A stretch of 28,456 nucleotides of DNA from a virus (lineage: Duplodnaviria; Caudoviricetes): positions 1-28,456 of IMG/VR virus record IMGVR_UViG_3300007542_000129; one strand, 5' to 3'. The notes under the pieces were generated by a model. It was not told the DNA's origin and did not search any database. It worked only from the letters and a program-made list of their open reading frames with translations. Of this stretch, positions 17,748 to 27,331 are shown piece by piece (position 1 is the stretch's first letter; every line of letters starts with the position of its first letter). The position numbers and the translations under genes were made by a program.

Positions 17748-18089
17748 ATGAGTCAGTTGGATCAGGTGAATTTAGTGGCTTCTCTGAAGGACAAGGGACT
17801 CGATGACGTTGCTAGGCACACGTTCTCTGTAGTACACGACATGGATCAGCGCATTATTCGGATAATGCGCGAGCTTGAAACCCTCCGGAAAGAGATGGAT
17901 GAGGTAGCTAAAGCATTCCCAGATGCCGACATCCACGGACACCGCCTATATCACCAAAAGCTAATAAGAGAATCTTTTGCCGAAGAAAACATTAAAAGTT
18001 CGGTAAAAGCCGATATAATTACTAAAATTATACTGTTCGCAGTCGCCGCTATCGCCGCCGTGTTAGGGCTTAAAATAGGACTTGGGTAA
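17748..18089 (+). CDS. Coiled-coil protein with C-terminal TM (holin-like, hypothetical)
   Basis: AFPDADIHGHRLYH motif, C-terminal TM IILFAVAAIAAVLGL, and TAATG coupling to the endolysin. Confidence 0.6.
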   Translation: MSQLDQVNLVASLKDKGLDDVARHTFSVVHDMDQRIIRIMRELETLRKEMDEVAKAFPDADIHGHRLYHQKLIRESFAEENIKSSVKADIITKIILFAVAAIAAVLGLKIGLG

Positions 18090-18499
18090 TGACCCCAGCA
18101 GAATTTGAAATGATGCTCATCCGCCACGAGGGGATGGAGCTAAAACCTTATAAAGACACTGTTGGAAAGCTGACAATTGGCGTAGGACGAAACCTAGATG
18201 ATAGAGGAATCTCGGAGGAAGAGGCGATGTACCTTCTCCGAAACGATATTGAGATTCATGCGCGGGAGCTTGCAGATCGCTTCCCTGTTGTGCGTGATCT
18301 ATCTGGCGCTCGTTATTACGTCCTTGTTAATATGTGTTTTAATATCGGCATACACCGACTGGCCGGTTTCCAGCGCATGTGGGCGGCTATCGACCGCCAT
18401 GACTACGCTTCTGCTTCCCTAGAAATGCTCGACTCCAAGTGGGCGAAACAAGTCGGAAAACGGGCTGAAGAATTGGCTGAAATCATGCGGGTGGGCTGA
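18089..18499 (+). CDS. Endolysin, glycoside hydrolase family 24 (T4-lysozyme-like muramidase)
   Basis: HEGMELKPYKDTVGKLTIGVGRNL gives the E-X8-D-X5-T catalytic triad. Also LVNMCFNIG and EMLDSKWAKQVGKRA motifs. No signal or SAR segment. Confidence 0.93.
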   Translation: MTPAEFEMMLIRHEGMELKPYKDTVGKLTIGVGRNLDDRGISEEEAMYLLRNDIEIHARELADRFPVVRDLSGARYYVLVNMCFNIGIHRLAGFQRMWAAIDRHDYASASLEMLDSKWAKQVGKRAEELAEIMRVG

Positions 18500-19032
18500 T
18501 GTCTAAATGGAGTAATTTCGTTCAGTGTAGTTTACTGTCCAATATGTCGGTGGATGCTACATCGGCAATTGTGTCCGTTGCGCCCGCTGGATGGACAGAC
18601 GTACCGGACCCGGCAGGTGATATTGCGTACCTAACTTTATTGGATGATATAGCCGCCCCAACTAAGTTCGAGATTATTTCCTATACATCTCGTTCAGGCG
18701 TTGGTCCGTACACATTAGATGGTATTACTAGGGGTGAAGAAGGTACGACTCCGCTAGTTTGGTCCATAGGAAATGCTGTAATTCAGAACATAACAGCCAG
18801 TGCGCTAGTTGAGGCTCTTCAGTACGGGACATTAACCACCGGTAAAGGGTTAACGGGGGCTGAGACACCAGTTTCTCTCGGCGGAGATTTAAACATTTCT
18901 TTGTCTATTGAAGAGCTTGTTGCAAGTATAGTAAGTGATAGTGATTCAAACTACATCCCTATGTATACAGGCATACTCGATGATACAGTAAAGGTTCGCA
19001 TACGCGATATTGTAGACGGTGGTACATTTTAA
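18499..19032 (+). CDS. Tail fibre proximal/anchor protein (fibre A)
   Basis: N-terminal TL..EII.YT..TL..TRGEEGT..W..G..V...ITA pattern of phage fibre anchor domains. Ends in DGGTF. Confidence 0.7.
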   Translation: MSKWSNFVQCSLLSNMSVDATSAIVSVAPAGWTDVPDPAGDIAYLTLLDDIAAPTKFEIISYTSRSGVGPYTLDGITRGEEGTTPLVWSIGNAVIQNITASALVEALQYGTLTTGKGLTGAETPVSLGGDLNISLSIEELVASIVSDSDSNYIPMYTGILDDTVKVRIRDIVDGGTF

Positions 19033-19048
19033 TCTTTGGAGGTAGCCA

Positions 19049-20158
19049 ATGGCTAACAAATTGAAAATTAGGCGTTCTCAAACGAACACAGTGGCCAGTG
19101 CAGGCGCTCTTGAGTTTGGTGAACTTGTATATACAGAAGTAGATGGTAATTTCTACGTAGCAGATTCTAGCAACACTGCTGTTCAAATCGGTAAAGAAAC
19201 AAACGGAAGCACAACAGAATTCTTGCGTGGTGATGGCACTTGGGCAGCCCCAGCAGGCGCGGGTGATGTAGTCGGACCGGCTTCTTCTACTGATAACACC
19301 CTACCACGCTATGATGGCACTACTGGCAAACTAATTCAGGGTTCTGGCGTTGTTGTTGACGACTTAAACAATATGTCGGGTGTCGGTACATTGAATGGTG
19401 CAACCCTGCCATCAAGTGGCACTATCCTCACTGACAATGACATCGGTACTTCTGTTCAGGGTTATGACGCAAACAATGCGCTGACAACTGATATTACCTA
19501 CGAAACACTGAGCGCTAACGGCGACGTAGGTACCGGCTCTGCACAGGTAGCGCAGGGCAACCACCTTCATACTGGCGTGTATGAGCCGGTAGACGCCACC
19601 ATTATCCGTACATCAAATGCTGATGCCTCTGGTTTTAGTTTTGTCGTTGATGAAGACGATATGCTTTCCAACTCGGCAACGAAAGTACCAACTCAACAGT
19701 CTGTTAAAGCCTATGTTGATGCTGTTGCTGCTTCTGAGATGACTTATCGTGGAGGCTATGACGCTTCCACTAACACCCCTGATCTGGATACTGCTCCATC
19801 TGGCATTAGTGTTGGTGATATGTTCACTGTTACTGTTGCGGGTACGTTCTTCGCTACTGCTGTAGAGGCAGGTGATGTCCTTATCGCAGAACAAACTGAC
19901 CCAACAACTGAAGCTCACTGGACGATTGTAAATAAGAATCTTGACTCAGTAGCCTCAGCGGGCACTACCCTGACAGCAGGAGTCGGCCTTGCAGGTGGTG
20001 GCGATCTTTCTGCTAACCGCACATTCGATCTTGACTTCAACGAGTTGACTGCTCAAACAGACGGCCTCGGCACTAATGAGATTGCAGTTCAACTAACTGG
20101 TGGCGGTGCTTTCCGTAAAATGACAGTAGCTAACTTCCTTGATGGTGGCACATTCTAA
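19049..20158 (+). CDS. Tail fibre protein (fibre B, extender-like)
   Basis: GGAGG RBS. N-terminus MANKLKIRRS..LEFGEL; fibre motifs FLRGDGTW, GDVVGPASSTDN..DGTTGKLI, GNHLH, TQQSVKAYVD, YRGGYDASTNTP. Ends in DGGTF. Confidence 0.82.
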   Translation: MANKLKIRRSQTNTVASAGALEFGELVYTEVDGNFYVADSSNTAVQIGKETNGSTTEFLRGDGTWAAPAGAGDVVGPASSTDNTLPRYDGTTGKLIQGSGVVVDDLNNMSGVGTLNGATLPSSGTILTDNDIGTSVQGYDANNALTTDITYETLSANGDVGTGSAQVAQGNHLHTGVYEPVDATIIRTSNADASGFSFVVDEDDMLSNSATKVPTQQSVKAYVDAVAASEMTYRGGYDASTNTPDLDTAPSGISVGDMFTVTVAGTFFATAVEAGDVLIAEQTDPTTEAHWTIVNKNLDSVASAGTTLTAGVGLAGGGDLSANRTFDLDFNELTAQTDGLGTNEIAVQLTGGGAFRKMTVANFLDGGTF

Positions 20159-22714
20159 ATGGCGAATCAGATCCGCATAAAACGTGGGTTAGAAGCAAAC
20201 CGCAGCGGGGTAACCCCCGCTGAGGGTGAGCTTTTATACACAACAGATGAAAAGAAAGTCTACATTGGTGATGGATCAACTGCCGGTGGTATCTTGGTTA
20301 CTGGCTCAGGAACTGGTACTCCCGGCATAACAACTACTGCTACCGGTGAGGCAATCATTATTGATGTTAATAATGACGTAGAAATTACTGGCGATCTAAC
20401 TGTTAATGGGTTTGTTTTACAGAACAGTGCCCAGTTCGAAACAACAGCCGGGGTTACAGTTGGTACAGGTGAAGTAGCTTGGAACCCGGACGAAGGAACG
20501 CTTGATGTTGGTTTACTAAATGGTTCAGTAAATCAGCTTGGTCAAGAAGTCAGTTATATTGTAAAGAACCAGACAGGTTCTTTGATACCAAATGGCACTG
20601 CTGTAATGGTTACTGGTACTTTAGGTGCTAGTGGTAGATTGACTATTGCTCCAATGGTTGCTGATGGAACAGTAGAAGCAAAATATTTCATTGGTGTCAC
20701 CACTCACGATATTGCTGATGGTGAAGACGGGTACGTAACTCATTTTGGTAAAGTTCGTGGACTTAATTTAACATCGTTTTCAGATGGTGATGTTTTATTT
20801 GTTGATCCAGCGACTCCCGGTGGGTTTATAGCAACCGAACCCAGTGATGGGGTTTTAAAACTACCTACTGCCTTTGTAATCTATAATGGTGGCGGTAATA
20901 CTACGCAAGGTGTACTTTTTGTCCGTTCGACACAAGGTAGTTATCTAAGACACGCACATGATGTACGGCTAACAAATATTTCAACTGGAGATATTTTAGT
21001 TTGGGATAATGAGAACTCTGAGTTTATTAACGCACAAGAAACAGACCCAGTTTTCAATGCTTCTGCCGCAAGCGGTATTCTCGTTGGAGATATAACAAAC
21101 TGGAACACTGCTTACGGTTGGGGGGATCACTCAACTCAGGGGTATCTAACCGCTGAGACCGACCCTGTGTTTTCTGTGTCTGCCGCAAGCGGTATTCTCG
21201 TTGGAGATATAACAAACTGGAACACTGCTTACGGTTGGGGTGATCACTCTACTCAGGGGTATCTAACTGATATAACCGGCGAATCTATTAAAGATTTATC
21301 TGATGTTAATTCAGGTATGACTCCAACAGATACACAAGTATTGCGATATGATAATGCGAATAGTCGTTGGGATGCTTCAACATTAAATGATATTACTACT
21401 GCTGATGCGATATTAGCAGTTGCGAATGTTACTGCCGATATGACAGGGTTTCCAAACCGCACAGATACTACTATTTCATTTAACCCAACTACTAGAACAG
21501 CTACAATCGCACCAACTGGTGCGTCAGCATCATACTGGTATAGGGGTACTGAGTTTACGTTTTCCACACCAAAGACATTTCAGATAGACGATGTAACTGC
21601 TCAGAACTACATTAATATAGATCAAAACGGTAATTTATATGCGGCGGGTGCTGTTCCCGGAATTAGACATAACCTGCTTTGTATGTACGTTGTTTGGAAC
21701 GCTACAGATGGTAATGCTTTTATTTTTGGTGATGAACGACACTCATCTGAACGAGATACAGAATGGCATCATTATGAACACGAAACAGAAGGCGCACAAT
21801 GGAGAAGTGGTGGTGGTTTAACTTACACATTGAATGACGATACTGCTACTTCTATTGGTGTTGAAAACCTAATAATCTCTGATGAAGATTTAGACCACGA
21901 AATTAACCATTCAGCGACACCAACTGCTAATTATGAACAAATATTAAGTGGTGCGGCAAATCTTCCTGTTTTATACAGAAACGGCACTGAATGGTCGCAA
22001 ATAACTCCATCAACTGATCCTTGGGTTGCCGGTACTTCACTTGCTAGTTATAACGCTATTGATGGTGGTGGGTCTGGTTCACTTACAGATGCGTCAGAAG
22101 GTGATTACATTTCATATTGGATGGTTGCGACTAACGATATTTACTATCCAATAAAATTAATTCTAGGTAATAGTACATACGCTTCTAATGAAGATGCTTA
22201 TGGTGAAAGTTGGGATTCTTTCGGTGTTCCTGTTTCTGAGATTGTTCCGATGTATCAAATCATCTTACAAACAAGTGCTTCGTACACAAACAGTACAGCA
22301 AAGGTTGTTATTGCTGATGTTAGAATCATTACAGATCGTGCCTCAACTTCTTCTGGCGCGTTTACAGCAACAAGTCACGATTCCTTATCAGGTAGATCAG
22401 ACGCAAACCAACATCCGATTAGTGCTATTACTAATTTACAAACAACACTTGATGCTAAAGAACCCTCTATTACAAAATCTACTGGATATGCTACTTGGAA
22501 TGGAAGTGCTTGGTCTTTCTTGAACGAAACATACCTTCAGGACATAACCGGTGAAAACATAGACTCACTAAGTAATGTTGTTATAAGTACGCCAACAAAT
22601 GGTCAGGTACTAAAATATAACGGAAGTAATTGGGTCAATGGCACTGATGAAAGTGGTGCTGGCGGCGGTATAACTACTGGCAAAGCAATCGCAATGGCAA
22701 TAGTTTTTGGTTAA
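20159..22714 (+). CDS. Long tail fibre protein (fibre C) with Mtd_N/hyaluronidase-N-like N-terminus
   Basis: MANQIRIKRG..PAEGELLYTTDEKKVYIGDG; internal NWNTAYGWGDHS repeats; L.DV..GQVL.Y..W repeats; HPISAITNL; ends GITTGKAIAMAIVFG. Confidence 0.85.
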   Translation: MANQIRIKRGLEANRSGVTPAEGELLYTTDEKKVYIGDGSTAGGILVTGSGTGTPGITTTATGEAIIIDVNNDVEITGDLTVNGFVLQNSAQFETTAGVTVGTGEVAWNPDEGTLDVGLLNGSVNQLGQEVSYIVKNQTGSLIPNGTAVMVTGTLGASGRLTIAPMVADGTVEAKYFIGVTTHDIADGEDGYVTHFGKVRGLNLTSFSDGDVLFVDPATPGGFIATEPSDGVLKLPTAFVIYNGGGNTTQGVLFVRSTQGSYLRHAHDVRLTNISTGDILVWDNENSEFINAQETDPVFNASAASGILVGDITNWNTAYGWGDHSTQGYLTAETDPVFSVSAASGILVGDITNWNTAYGWGDHSTQGYLTDITGESIKDLSDVNSGMTPTDTQVLRYDNANSRWDASTLNDITTADAILAVANVTADMTGFPNRTDTTISFNPTTRTATIAPTGASASYWYRGTEFTFSTPKTFQIDDVTAQNYINIDQNGNLYAAGAVPGIRHNLLCMYVVWNATDGNAFIFGDERHSSERDTEWHHYEHETEGAQWRSGGGLTYTLNDDTATSIGVENLIISDEDLDHEINHSATPTANYEQILSGAANLPVLYRNGTEWSQITPSTDPWVAGTSLASYNAIDGGGSGSLTDASEGDYISYWMVATNDIYYPIKLILGNSTYASNEDAYGESWDSFGVPVSEIVPMYQIILQTSASYTNSTAKVVIADVRIITDRASTSSGAFTATSHDSLSGRSDANQHPISAITNLQTTLDAKEPSITKSTGYATWNGSAWSFLNETYLQDITGENIDSLSNVVISTPTNGQVLKYNGSNWVNGTDESGAGGGITTGKAIAMAIVFG
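21038..21268 (+). repeat. Tandem 117-nt (39-aa) duplication within fibre C
   Basis: Units start at 21038 and 21155. 21062-21123 is identical to 21179-21240 (62 nt), and there are only 2 mismatches over 21062-21150 versus 21179-21267. Confidence 0.95.
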
Positions 22715-22726
22715 GGGGATTTTTAA

Positions 22727-23086
22727 ATGGCGGCTCCAAATATAGTAGACGTAACAACAATTACAGGTAAAACTGATGTACAGTCAGTTACAACAACAGC
22801 GACAGCAATAACAACTAACTCTGCGGCATCTGGTCAAGTTTATAAAGTAAACTCACTTACAATATCAAACATTGATGGCACTAATGATGCAGATATAACT
22901 GTAGACTTATATAGAGGTGCTACAGCATATAGATTGGCTAGCACAATTACAGTACCAGCGGCAGCAACATTGGTTGTTTTGTCAAAAGATAGTGCAGTTT
23001 ATCTTGAAGAAGGCGATGCTCTGCGTTGCACAGCTTCTGCCAATGGTGATTTACAGGCAATTTGTTCTTACGAGATTATAGCTTAG
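22727..23086 (+). CDS. Small beta-rich fibre connector/adaptor protein (D)
   Basis: MAAPNIVDVTTITGKT..NIDGTN..YLEEGD..SYEII: a conserved phage family I recall directly following fibres that end in GKAIAMAIVFG. Confidence 0.7.
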   Translation: MAAPNIVDVTTITGKTDVQSVTTTATAITTNSAASGQVYKVNSLTISNIDGTNDADITVDLYRGATAYRLASTITVPAAATLVVLSKDSAVYLEEGDALRCTASANGDLQAICSYEIIA

Positions 23087-23089
23087 TCC

Positions 23090-24691
23090 ATGTTAAAAAA
23101 GACTAGAAATGGGTCAATGATTGGTTCTACATTGAATCAATTAACTACAGATTATTATCAGTGGTTTGATGAGACTCAAGCCGGTATTGCTACTATATCG
23201 CTTGTTGGTTTTACTTTCGGCGCTAATAGTGATGCCACATTACCATCTGGGTTACAACAGAATGACTTTGTAATTATTGCTACTGGATCAGATAACACAC
23301 TATCTACTGTTCCTACAGGTTGGACAGAGTTTACTCTACAGCACACTAGGACAAGTTCACGAGAAATGGCGATGTATAAAGTCATGGGTGCTACACCAGA
23401 TACGACTGCTGCTATTGGTACAGGTGTAAACTGGATTGTTACAGCATGGAGAGATGTTGATTTAATCACACCATTTGCTTATTCAACTGATGGTATTAAC
23501 GTAAATAGTAATATGCCTGACCCACCATCAGTTACTACTGTTACCGCAAATCCTAGTGTGATTGTTGCTATTGGCTGTCTTGATGATGATGAATTAGCTG
23601 AAGATAGTGTTACAGCACCAACAAATTATACAATGATTAAGCAGATTGGAACTGGTCAAACATTTGGCTCATTAATGGTTGCTTATAGAGCAGACTTTAA
23701 TGGTACAGATAACCCATCAGCTTTTGGTGGTACAGGTAACGATGCTTGGGGCGCTTACAGTATTGCTCTGAACCCTGCTGAAACAACAGGTGCTTGGGTT
23801 GATGGAAATAAAAAGAACTCTGGTGTTTGGGATATTGTTGCCTTTAATGACTCAGAGACTTTACAAAACAATGTGACACTTCCCGGACAAGTTGAGTTTA
23901 CAACAGCCGGTTCTGGTACATGGACTGTACCATCTGGTGTATCTGAAATATCTGTCGTATGTATCGGCGGCGGCGGCGGTGGTTCTGCTTCTCCGGGTAC
24001 TTCTAATGAATCCGGCGCAGGCGGCGGTGGTGGTGGATTAGGCTACGCAACATTAGCAGTAACAGCCGGTGAAGACTTAGACTATGTTGTTGGTGCTGGC
24101 GGTGCTGGTGGTGCTTCTGGAACAGCATCGGGAACTAATGGCGGCGACTCAACTTTATCAAGAGGTGCTACTGTATTGGTTTCGGGTCTTGGTGGTACTG
24201 GTGGTCAGTCATTGGGTGATGGAGCAACAACTTTTGCGGGCGGTTCTTTCACTGGTGATGGTGGTGGAAGCGGCGGAAGCGGTGGAGCATCAAACACTAA
24301 CCAAGGCGGTGGCGGTGGCGGCGGAGCCGGTGGTTACACGGGGGATGGCGGTAATGGCGGCACAACTAACTCTGGGACAGGATCAAATGGGATTGGTGGC
24401 GCAGGTGGTGGCGGCGGCGGTCAATCGACAGGTGGCGCGTACAACAACGGCGGCGGCGGTACAGGTATTTACGGTGAAGGTACAAGTGGAACAGGTGGAA
24501 ATGTAGATAGTCCGGGAACGGGTGGTTCTGGAGGAACCACAGGTAGTGCTAACGGCGGTGTATTTGGTGCTGGTGGTGGTTCTCCTGAAGATGATACAGC
24601 ACTTGGTGGGGGTAATGGTGGAGATGGTGCTATAAGAATAATATGGGGAACTGGTAGGTTCTACCCATCAACCGGAACGGCGGATGTGTAA
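23090..24691 (+). CDS. Glycine-rich tail adhesin / receptor-binding protein (E)
   Basis: 533 aa. C-terminal half FTTAGSGTWTVPSGVSEISVVCIGGGGGG...GGDGAIRIIW has many polyglycine runs (T-even gp38-like composition). Extra beta domain in the N-terminal half. Confidence 0.78.
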   Translation: MLKKTRNGSMIGSTLNQLTTDYYQWFDETQAGIATISLVGFTFGANSDATLPSGLQQNDFVIIATGSDNTLSTVPTGWTEFTLQHTRTSSREMAMYKVMGATPDTTAAIGTGVNWIVTAWRDVDLITPFAYSTDGINVNSNMPDPPSVTTVTANPSVIVAIGCLDDDELAEDSVTAPTNYTMIKQIGTGQTFGSLMVAYRADFNGTDNPSAFGGTGNDAWGAYSIALNPAETTGAWVDGNKKNSGVWDIVAFNDSETLQNNVTLPGQVEFTTAGSGTWTVPSGVSEISVVCIGGGGGGSASPGTSNESGAGGGGGGLGYATLAVTAGEDLDYVVGAGGAGGASGTASGTNGGDSTLSRGATVLVSGLGGTGGQSLGDGATTFAGGSFTGDGGGSGGSGGASNTNQGGGGGGGAGGYTGDGGNGGTTNSGTGSNGIGGAGGGGGGQSTGGAYNNGGGGTGIYGEGTSGTGGNVDSPGTGGSGGTTGSANGGVFGAGGGSPEDDTALGGGNGGDGAIRIIWGTGRFYPSTGTADV

Positions 24692-25425
24692 TGTCAGTTA
24701 AAAGTAGATTTGGCAGTTATTTTAGAGGTCGATATTTAATCCAAGGTGATTGGCTTAGAATTAAATCACCATCATCGTCTGTAAATACAGCACCAAGTAC
24801 AATTCTTGATTTCAATTATTCTGACGCTCAAGGAATTTATGATTTAACATCGACACATCAGTTTCCTAACCTTGTTGGCCCGCAATATGAGCTTGGACTT
24901 ACACCCTCTTTGTTCACAATATCAGGTGAACTTGATGCTTGGACACAAAGAGTCGTTGATATATCTGGATATGCTGGTGCTACTGTATACTTGGTTTTTG
25001 CTTACCAAAACGGTACTGCGGGTGCTAGCTCTTGGCAGGGTGACTTACAGTTAGATGCTATAAATCTAGATGGAAATCTGTACTCATTTGAAAATACTGG
25101 TGAATCATTTCAAACAAGCAGTGCGGGTGAGACAACCTATGCCTCAGTGACATGGAGCAACGTAATTGTAAATACCGCATCGAACTCGTTTGCTTGGCAG
25201 GTGGATACTGGCGGTACAGGCTCCACAGGTACAGGTAGAACAGATGCGGCTGATGGAACATATTATGTGTATACAGAGACCTCCGCGCCCGCAACGTTTG
25301 GATCGTATTTCTGGTTAAGAAGTCCGCAAATAATATTATCTGGTGCTCCAACATTATCGTTTTATGAAGCAAGATTAGGTCCGAATATAGGACAACTAGA
25401 TGTATATCTGGATGTTATAGCATAG
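24691..25425 (+). CDS. Putative adhesin with MAM-like domain (F)
   Basis: TAATG coupling. WQV..GGTGSTGTG..DGTYYVYTETS..LRSP..LSFY..G..IGQLDV and W....VDIS..GDLQLDAINL resemble MAM consensus blocks. Confidence 0.62.
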   Translation: MSVKSRFGSYFRGRYLIQGDWLRIKSPSSSVNTAPSTILDFNYSDAQGIYDLTSTHQFPNLVGPQYELGLTPSLFTISGELDAWTQRVVDISGYAGATVYLVFAYQNGTAGASSWQGDLQLDAINLDGNLYSFENTGESFQTSSAGETTYASVTWSNVIVNTASNSFAWQVDTGGTGSTGTGRTDAADGTYYVYTETSAPATFGSYFWLRSPQIILSGAPTLSFYEARLGPNIGQLDVYLDVIA

Positions 25426-25435
25426 AGGAATAAAA

Positions 25436-25876
25436 ATGGCATTATATTCATTTAACGGTGCTTACCCAACTCAGTTACCTAATAAGATTACATTGAGTGA
25501 CGGCACAACAAGAACTGATAAGGCAGCGTTTACGGCAGAAGAAATACTGGATGCTGGGTGGATAGAAGTTGCAAACCCACCCTCAGCATCTTACCCAAAT
25601 GTGTTGGAGTGGGTCAATGGTACTTGGAATGTAAGACCGCCAAACACCAGTGAAACGCTTATGAAAATACAGCAGTTAAGAGACTTATCGTTAGATAAAC
25701 TGAATCAAACTGATTACAGAGTTATTAAAGCCTATGAAACGGGTGTGGCACTAGACGCACATTGGGTTACATACAGGCAAGAACTGAGAGATTTTTATAA
25801 CAGCATTCCATCTGATCCAGACCCTTGGAATGCTACCCTCCCAACTGTAAACATAGTAGGTCAAGACGAGATCTAA
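25436..25876 (+). CDS. Tail fibre assembly chaperone-like protein
   Basis: GAGGA RBS. C-terminal LNQTDYRVIKAYETG..WVTYRQELRD..WN..P pattern of fibre assembly chaperones. Confidence 0.72.
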   Translation: MALYSFNGAYPTQLPNKITLSDGTTRTDKAAFTAEEILDAGWIEVANPPSASYPNVLEWVNGTWNVRPPNTSETLMKIQQLRDLSLDKLNQTDYRVIKAYETGVALDAHWVTYRQELRDFYNSIPSDPDPWNATLPTVNIVGQDEI

Positions 25877-25877
25877 A

Positions 25878-26174
25878 ATGTATTTTCCTGTATTCGGATT
25901 TGGTCATCTTGCGTTATCGAGGGCTTATAAAGTCGAATTCATCGACGAGAATGGCGTATGGCAGGAAATAATCAGGATAAGTAGCTACGTAAACAAAAAA
26001 GAAGAGAAGGGCATTAACCTGTGTTTCAGTGAGAATTTTGATGTCTTTATTGATGAATTGATGGAATTTGAAAGTAGCCTTATGTTCGCAAGCAACTTAG
26101 ATGCTAGAATCTATGGAAATGAGCTAATAAATAGCTATATATCAAAACAATATGCTGACGAGGTAGAACTGTAA
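25878..26174 (+). CDS. Hypothetical acidic protein
   Basis: 98 aa, exactly fills the gap between two coupled genes, with TAATG at its 3' end. No recognised motif. Confidence 0.55.
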   Translation: MYFPVFGFGHLALSRAYKVEFIDENGVWQEIIRISSYVNKKEEKGINLCFSENFDVFIDELMEFESSLMFASNLDARIYGNELINSYISKQYADEVEL

Positions 26175-26482
26175 TGGCTGCTAACGAAATTCACCTAAAT
26201 GACATAGGTACTATTTTTGAACTGACTCTGATGGATGACACTGTAGTCGTCGATGTAAGTACAGCGATTACTAAAGAGATTATCTTTGAAAAACCGGACA
26301 AGACAACCACAGTACAAACGGCTTCTTTTACAACAGATGGAACGGACGGGAAGATAAGGTACGTAGTTATCTCGGGTGATCTTGATCAGATTGGGTCGTG
26401 GAGGATTCAAGGCAAAGTAACTCTGCCTACAGGTACTTGGTCAAGCGATATTTCTAAATTCAAAGTGTACGATAATCTTTAA
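26174..26482 (+). CDS. Small Ig-like virion protein (BppU N-terminal-like)
   Basis: DIGTIF..D.S.A..I.F.KPD..TDGTDGKIRY..GDLDQ.G.W..Q..V..F.V..NL pattern. Confidence 0.65.
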   Translation: MAANEIHLNDIGTIFELTLMDDTVVVDVSTAITKEIIFEKPDKTTTVQTASFTTDGTDGKIRYVVISGDLDQIGSWRIQGKVTLPTGTWSSDISKFKVYDNL

Positions 26483-26515
26483 AACAAAAAAAAACCCGGA
26501 CTTTTGGTCCGGGTT
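26481..26515 (-). terminator. Rho-independent terminator for the minus-strand operon
   Basis: 9-bp stem AACCCGGAC (26493-26501) / GTCCGGGTT (26507-26515) with a 5-nt loop. The A-run at 26481-26494 reads as a U-tract on the minus strand. Confidence 0.85.
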
Positions 26516-26535
26516 CAAAGCAACTTATCACACAT

Positions 26536-26569
26536 CTATCATCCGCGAGGATGATAGTAGTTTATTCAA
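26536..26569 (+). terminator. Hairpin, candidate terminator or stability element for the plus-strand late transcript
   Basis: Perfect 9-bp stem CTATCATCC / GGATGATAG (26536-26557) with a GCGA (GNRA) loop, followed by a weak T-rich tail TAGTTTATT. Confidence 0.5.
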
Positions 26570-26798
26570 CTTCTTTTGGTGTGTCAATCAATAGTGGTTT
26601 AAATAATTCAAAGGGGTTGTCCCATGCGAGAATTGCGTGAGGTATGATCTGTTCACCTTGTTTGGTACAGATCGCAGCGCGTTCTTCGTCATCAGGTACA
26701 GTTTTCACAGGTAGGATAACAACTTCGGCCCCTTGGGACATGAGCTTCTGGAACAGTTTGAAGTTGTTTTGGTAGGTCGTTAGGTCGTCGAGCGTCAA
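26562..26798 (-). CDS. Hypothetical protein
   Basis: 78 aa; the TTG start overlaps the exonuclease TGA, and the ORF ends just before the hairpins. Confidence 0.6.
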   Translation of the reverse strand: MTLDDLTTYQNNFKLFQKLMSQGAEVVILPVKTVPDDEERAAICTKQGEQIIPHAILAWDNPFELFKPLLIDTPKEVE

Positions 26799-27331
26799 AG
26801 GCCTGCCCTCAGCTTATCATAAATATAACGTACACAAGTTGCTTGATGTAGCGCGTCATCGAGCGCGTTGTGATGTGTTCCCATTCGCTTTGGAAGTTCA
26901 GATTTATCAACTAAATCAAATAAGGTGCGAGTGTCACGCATATTCCAGTATTGCCAAGGCGCAGCAATATTGTATTGTTTGAACGCATTTTCCAAGATCA
27001 TAAGGTCAAAAGTTGCCCCATGTGACCAGTATTTAACCTCGCGCAGTTTTTCAGGTACGCTGTCACATATTTCTGACAATACCCACGCTTTAAAGTCAAT
27101 GAGGGCTTGTTTTAAATCAGCGTCTCCTTCTTTACCAAAAACCTCGCGTTGGGCGTCTTCGTTTTGATTCATCCACCAGCGAACCGTGCCATCATCAATG
27201 TGTCGGTCTTGAGTACCGGGCTTAATTAGTCGGTAGAACTCGCCTCCACCCCATATTTGGGAAGCCCCGATAGACAAGATATGGCAGTCGTGGTCAAGCC
27301 CCAGCGTTTCAATATCAATCATTACGTGCAT
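26795..27331 (-). CDS. DEDDh 3'-5' exonuclease (RNase T / exonuclease VIII-like phage family)
   Basis: ExoI HVMIDIETLG, ExoII WSHGATFD, RDTRT, and ExoIII HNALDDALHQA. Confidence 0.9.
   Translation of the reverse strand: MHVMIDIETLGLDHDCHILSIGASQIWGGGEFYRLIKPGTQDRHIDDGTVRWWMNQNEDAQREVFGKEGDADLKQALIDFKAWVLSEICDSVPEKLREVKYWSHGATFDLMILENAFKQYNIAAPWQYWNMRDTRTLFDLVDKSELPKRMGTHHNALDDALHQATCVRYIYDKLRAGL

Follow-up and report, generated by a model that had tools for sequence, protein, structure and literature searches.

Short tail peptides and Mtd_N-type head domains as probable joints of a presumably fixed three-protein tail fibre in an uncultured phage

The 28,456-base window considered here is one whole contig of an uncultured phage, likely a podophage, that is present in freshwater, estuary and marine metagenomes. 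It contains large virion genes, a lysozyme gene and a tail fibre cassette, in which three genes located after the lysozyme gene, named A (18499-19032, 177 amino acids), B (19049-20158, 369 amino acids) and C (20159-22714, 851 amino acids), are of interest. An initial annotation of this DNA proposed that A and B end in a plug which fits a socket at the start of the following gene product, and that B might be an optional or self-polymerising extender. All the motifs and open reading frames (ORFs) quoted there for A, B and C were found in place, and A and B both end in DGGTF. We consider it probable that the three proteins form a fixed A-B-C chain of trimers, one each in gene order. This reading builds on the motifs at the gene ends, their genomic coupling, their equivalence to the ends of T4 gp36 and gp37, and a rearranged relative of the phage. 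The features of the three genes that would form the two joints are as follows.

18499..18813, plus strand: N-terminal domain of gene A (residues 1-105), likely the tail anchor of the fibre
18826..19032, plus strand: C-terminal module of gene A, composed of generic fibre repeats, then the plug DGGTF (19015-19029) and the stop codon
19038..19043, plus strand: strong Shine-Dalgarno site GGAGGT of gene B
19049..19192, plus strand: N-terminal socket of gene B, Mtd_N/gp37-like, under the Pfam threshold
19193..19960, plus strand: shaft of gene B, a mosaic of fibre repeats with a single small beta domain at about residues 232-296
19961..20158, plus strand: C-terminal module of gene B with the plug DGGTF at its end (20141-20155); the stop codon abuts the start of C
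20159..20299, plus strand: N-terminal socket of gene C, Pfam Mtd_N at residues 5-41

Residues 1-105 of A form a confident domain in the predicted structure (predicted local distance difference test, pLDDT, >90). The domain has 405 relatives at an expect value (E) <=0.001, and the best 150 of the 405 match almost exclusively in this stretch, which in them lies at the N-terminus of proteins of 118-1186 amino acids. A profile search matched the tail fibre of PDB 8JOV (E 3e-5), and the top Foldseek match was 8JOV_1 from the phage GP4 portal-tail complex (E 6e-4, template modelling score 0.68 by target). By analogy, A is likely fixed to the tail through this GP4-like N-domain.

The C-terminal modules of A and B, described in the initial annotation as one paralogous module of about 65 residues, are indeed paralogous but are not plug throughout. 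They share 24 identities over 73 columns, a score reached by 2 of 5000 shuffles with DGGTF held fixed, and BLASTP reports the pair at E 0.003; a profile test of the A module without DGGTF gave 5.5 bits against 4.6 for the best of 500 shuffles, which is weak alone. The first half of the module is a generic fibre repeat which recurs inside the collar fibre of PDB 9D93, and among homologues of B constancy is limited to roughly the six terminal residues. The whole module was therefore rejected as the plug, which is a short peptide. Judged by sequence conservation, it may perhaps include the 16-22 terminal residues that are invariant in the relative described below.

The N-terminal modules of B and C are related to each other as well, as had been proposed: 14 of 48 residues are shared and none of 5000 shuffles reaches the score, although BLASTP does not report the match. 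Residues 5-41 of C belong to Pfam Mtd_N (PF18454; E 4e-12, 46.2 bits, above the gathering cut-off of 26.3 bits), whereas B has no Pfam match at E 0.1 and hence stays below that cut-off. On a profile of the socket family B scores 62 and C 52 bits, both being among its seeds, and no reversed decoy reaches 10 bits. A 79-member head profile containing B matches solved Mtd chains (E 7e-4), and 28 of its 79 members match Mtd_N at E 0.01. The B head thus appears to be a distant, diverged relative within a wider Mtd_N family. The T4 features named in the initial annotation proved right: gp36 ends in QDFGYY, and the N-terminus of gp37, which is not a seed, scores 42.5 bits on the socket profile. Among solved structures the matches of the head profile are limited to isolated Mtd and hyaluronidase chains; a sequence search of a copy of the PDB gave no solved chain pair with this joint, which does not prove its absence.

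The B head is predicted as a compact beta domain (pLDDT 75-83 over residues 11-50) with weak VIA-align matches (among them 7CHU, Z 4.1; 2C3F, Z 2.9; 1YU0, Z 2.6). The monomer model of B as a whole is poor (mean pLDDT 61, predicted template modelling score 0.28) and gave no Foldseek match at E 0.001 and no VIA-align match at Z 5, so these structural results serve as weak hints only. The shaft of B matches PHROG tail and tail-fibre families, and the B family profile matches the fibre protein gp28 of cyanophage P-SCSP1u (8I4M, E 1.5e-18). The body of C matches tail fibre family phrog_9729 (E 2e-37). No tail-anchor domain was detected in B or C by the searches run.

The initial annotation suggested a survey for the C-terminal motif together with a socket in the next gene, and this association is present. 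A DNA scan for a hydrophobic residue followed by DGGTF and a stop codon yielded 123 stretches from 2 of the 64 parts of a viral collection, from which about 5000 are estimated overall. The 121 loci analysed hold 127 distinct ends, 119 of them with enough flank, and a head domain starts within 250 bases downstream of 71/119 ends as against 40/393 other same-strand ORFs, many of them with a variant of the motif at their own end, DGGNF or DAGSF for example. At loci chosen through the B shaft, a head lies within 120 bases after 22 of 25 strict DGGxF-type ends, compared with 8/1531 other ORFs, taken from both strands whether or not they code; for looser ends it was next in 3/10. All these counts are lower bounds, because the head profile misses canonical Mtd-type heads. 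Proteins with both a socket and a plug, termed two-ended here, make up 20 of 120 B homologues by the strict pattern.

Some DGGTF ends lie outside any fibre context (L063, L084, L094, L139, L146, L079, L131) and are followed by a gene that starts with MSRPKP or is recombinase-like, so the pentapeptide alone is not diagnostic. A further tail variant occurs in phages MQM1 and CHOED (L241:3756-5558, L242:1262-5753), whose fibre genes end in EGD(V/I)-aromatic-(I/L)-x-x; in MQM1 one end of this kind is followed by a gene with Mtd_N and the same ending.

A close relative of the phage was found as contigs from five runs (X10-X14) of four studies, probably representing one strain. It parallels the window from the 3' half of A through the whole of B to codon 44 of C, then has 1954 other bases in place of 167 bases of the window, and resumes inside C. 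The exchanged bases and the features distal to them are listed here.

20291..20459, plus strand: natural breakpoint relative to the relative, 167 bases exchanged for 1954
20300..22678, plus strand: body of gene C, distal fibre segment (phrog_9729, likeness to P0139)
22679..22714, plus strand: C-terminal motif GKAIAMAIVFG of gene C, likely a second, different type of joint to gene D
22727..23086, plus strand: gene D (119 amino acids), probably an adaptor for distal proteins (23090-25425)

The 1954-base stretch holds the body of an extra gene X with its stop codon, and gives the C body another start. The joint is accounted for by five proteins, all with the same length of 70,755 bases for their longest contig. 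A' (P0122) is 76% identical to A, with the last 16 residues identical, and B' (P0137) is identical to B at 345 of 369 positions, including the first 50 and the last 22 residues. X (P0126, 627 amino acids) shares 40 of its first 47 residues with the C head and has Mtd_N, while its body is unrelated to that of C and it has no DGG tail. C' (P0139, 801 amino acids) keeps the C body (696 of 782 columns identical) behind a different N-terminus without Mtd_N, and D' (P0143, 119 amino acids) follows it, so gene D is conserved. The protein lengths fit a joint with 44 intergenic bases, and from this joint, the lengths and the shared contig we infer the gene order A-B-X-C'. A scan of the viral collection with P0122 gave no match, and one of the metagenomes returned this phage alone. 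Each of the two forms is found in independent assemblies, which excludes an artefact in both cases.

Three points emerge from this comparison. The C head stands behind B on a new body, and the C body has received another N-terminus; the head domain therefore travels with the upstream plug. The relative has the extra gene X, so the number of segments has changed, by gain or loss, through DNA rearrangement. Moreover, all four ends, the tails of A and B and the heads of B and C, are invariant or nearly so. The plug-and-socket proposal for A-B-C, with its predicted interface, is well supported by the neighbour statistics, the T4 gp36-gp37 precedent and the socket staying behind B. The same observations bear on a reading in which the motifs are independent end caps, serving trimerisation or folding of separate fibres, and lie next to each other through shared ancestry of gene boundaries. 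It draws on the weak matches of the head fold to the collagen XV/XVIII trimerisation domain and on the DGGTF ends followed by unrelated genes. However, the searches run detected no tail anchor in B or C, the coupling of the motifs holds across unrelated phages, and in the relative the head domain kept its place behind the upstream gene instead of going with its own body; we regard this reading as very improbable.

Whether B is optional or repeating was examined in 84 chains, 44 of which are complete from an anchor plug to a terminal gene; the other 40 are cut off, lack an anchor plug or end in an unpaired plug. One two-ended gene is present in 37 of the complete chains, including that of this phage, none in six and two in one. 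Only 7/71 pairs of plugs from the same chain are identical, and for the two heads of a chain the identity averages 33%, with a maximum of 52.5% over 42 pairs. A classifier under grouped cross-validation separates first from second heads with an area under the curve of 0.91 (permutation maximum 0.83), in a sample of 95 heads in 17 groups with 59 in one group. The prevalence of a single two-ended gene and the divergence of the heads speak against an extender.

Several points weigh against a fixed chain. The sample of chains is biased towards DGGTF, B-like and two-ended genes, some of the six chains with none are cut by the locus edge, and one two-ended gene per chain would also be seen with a polymer. 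The window is among the few chains with identical DGGTF plugs, and the classifier places the B socket in the terminal and the C socket in the first class, both wrongly, so that this phage does not follow the general positional signal. The ribosome-binding site of B is the strongest of the fibre genes (duplex energy -10.6, compared with -6.4 for A and -4.9 for C). B has a larger share of C-ending codons than gene C (46/91 versus 75/230, p 0.003), a weak trend that two-ended genes share in 21/33 chains (p 0.04, the chains not being independent). About 40% of the DGGTF ends have no adjacent socket by the head profile, with its blindness to canonical Mtd-type heads. A plug ending occurs in just 1/149 distant relatives of the A anchor; the arrangement of A is therefore derived, the anchor normally heading a single-chain fibre and having turned adaptor here. 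Finally, the close relative compared is a single one.

Taken by itself, the proposal that the B tail docks on its own head, so that A-C, A-B-C or A-Bn-C fibres form with a length given by the subunit supply, has no direct support, and we judge it unlikely. It appeals to the two ends of B, to the shared DGGTF of A and B, to the large family of two-ended proteins and to the strong ribosome-binding site, which is apparently the same in the relative (no substitution is listed at 19017-19060). An anchor-repeat-cap architecture does exist in the neck fibre of Anabaena phage A-1(L), according to the available text of PMC10966104. Yet the ends that would have to be equivalent in such a fibre, the anchor and repeat tails (24/73) and the repeat and cap heads (14/48), are paralogous but diverged, and the residues preceding DGGTF differ between A and B, each set being invariant in the relative. 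The ends of the A-1(L) proteins are themselves poorly alike in sequence, so divergence of this kind is compatible with an A-1(L)-type polymer; those proteins lack the motifs described here. Two-ended genes have no general advantage in ribosome-binding-site strength over terminal genes (stronger in 20, weaker in 17 of 38 chains), and this strength was rejected as a general mark of polymerising genes. The codon bias of B equals that of the lysozyme gene (18/34), is near that of the gene for a 2617-amino-acid protein (0.46) and may only reflect origin.

The one close relative compared keeps B, and the sole change of length seen is a DNA rearrangement, the insertion of a gene in that relative. We also judge unlikely the wider proposal that B self-polymerises on a T4-type joint, so that the phage population displays A-C, A-B-C and A-Bn-C fibres of lengths set by high B expression, and that a code of three or more orthogonal joint types lets the order of assembly be read from sequence alone. 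Judging from their gene order, better candidates for self-chaining than B are the unpaired plugs of six T4-like loci (L040, L041, L055, L078, L088, L105). There a two-ended fibre gene is followed by a coiled-coil-like gene of 58-83 amino acids and by neck-type genes, which we take to be gp13-like, and no head-domain gene lies in the 1.5-4 kb downstream.

A real but branched joint, in which the three tail peptides of a trimer would hold two or more trimers of the next protein, or both B and C would attach to A side by side, is to us rather improbable. The available text of PMC2408619 reports BPP-1 fibres with two Mtd trimers each. The upstream protein bbp9 ends in a related motif, and the monomer model gives B a flexible end, its six C-terminal residues having pLDDT <50. 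The T4 joint, in contrast, is described as 3:3 and linear in the available text of PMC9603124, and most chains have the gene order tail then head.

For the fixed A-B-C chain the following assembly can be envisaged. The 18 chains in 8JOV suggest by analogy that the tail would carry six A trimers, and the three DGGTF tails of each A trimer would bind the head of one B trimer. B would be a constitutive spacer whose tails dock on the head of one C trimer, and C would continue through a second type of joint to D and the distal proteins. The trimeric state, direct binding and a 1:1:1 stoichiometry, brought about by diverged partner surfaces or by the order of assembly, are presumed in this scheme. 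Changes of fibre length and tip would arise mainly by recombination just behind the head domain, leaving the joint intact.

The end of C, GKAIAMAIVFG, precedes the 119-amino-acid gene D, which starts with MAAPNIV. Where the next gene could be read, 10 of 12 distinct ends of this kind (the phage's own copy counted) precede a gene of 106-122 amino acids, and the passage from C to D is likely a second type of joint. At the boundary between X and C' a C-terminal module of about 75 amino acids is followed by a gene starting with MANDKKF-x-x-KNGL. This arrangement recurs in locus L069 and likely represents a third type, with the domain on the upstream partner.

Further observations concern the distal part of the cassette. 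C contains a near-exact tandem duplication of 39 amino acids (window about 21040-21270, ETDPVF...STQGYLT twice), which is kept in the relative; it was missed by Tandem Repeats Finder, which found no repeat in 18000-27000. The GC content at third codon positions is 0.20-0.27 in genes C to F (20159-25425) and 0.35-0.56 in the other genes scored, which suggests a separate acquisition of the distal cassette. The relative has diverged at 24776-25093, and 947 bases at 25561-26509, from the end of a chaperone-like gene through a gene of 102 amino acids, are exchanged for 956 others; by this comparison the distal cassette appears as a second variable region.

The T4 gp36-gp37 link is known as a fact of assembly. 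No account of it as a portable pair of tail peptide and head domain was found in the literature searched, which covers a minority of subscription journals; the available text of PMC12143355 and of bioRxiv 10.64898/2026.05.12.724579 contains no 'Mtd'. Should the pairing prove right, the ends of the genes would tell the order of fibre assembly in many uncultured phages, and a function could be assigned to Mtd_N. The relative is a natural experiment in which a body was swapped right behind the head domain and a segment added via a different type of joint, and it shows where such fibres recombine. This locus adds the rearranged relative and the several joint types in one fibre, and the tails of A and B with the heads of B and C define four small peptide-domain pairings.

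Among known systems, the tail fibre of GP4 (PDB 8JOV chain 1) corresponds to A in its resolved N-terminal part, by profile and by fold. The GP4 chain is a single protein of 439 amino acids, whereas here the anchor is an adaptor of 177 amino acids with a plug end. The A-1(L) neck fibre consists of gp82, about 14 gp81 trimers and gp80 (PMC10966104, available text). In this fibre, which has been measured, an anchor, a repeat and a cap follow one another and subunit stoichiometry gives the length; the fibre serves as a working model of the extender idea. It is, however, a neck and not a tail fibre, built of globular 168-amino-acid beads, with gene identity assigned from sizes and order; its proteins have no DGG tail and no Mtd_N head, and it was rejected as a homologue. 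The chain-like fibres of A1002 work by another mechanism, in which a rope protein runs through a row of dimers (PMC13730344, available text).

In BPP-1 the gene bbp9 lies directly upstream of mtd and ends in DLGGIA, and the head of C is an Mtd_N domain like that of Mtd. Mtd sits at the fibre ends (PMC2408619, available text), the two Mtd trimers per fibre being taken there from unpublished microscopy, and is terminal, while B and C continue into further segments. Unlike in BPP-1, a scan of 22 window proteins detected no reverse transcriptase. The cultured Escherichia phage Minorna has the same three-gene layout in genes 011-010-009: its anchor ends in DLGEL, its middle gene is two-ended (Mtd_N head, DLGVIT end) and its terminal gene has Mtd_N. 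Its segments are far shorter than A, B and C, and its plug variants differ.

The closest counterpart is T4, where the C-terminal end of gp36 binds the N-terminal end of gp37 (PMC9603124, available text). The upstream partner has a D-x-G-x-aromatic end like the DGGTF of A and B, and gp37 starts with the same head domain as B and C. In the bodies the two systems part, since gp36 and gp37 match the families Phage_T4_gp36, Collar or Gp34_trimer and A, B and C match none of these. To judge from its two sequence features, the A-B-C joint would work like that of gp36 and gp37 without being a member of the T4 long-tail-fibre family. T4 has one such joint; in the likely podophage described here two stand in tandem around a two-ended spacer, and a second type of joint probably follows after C.

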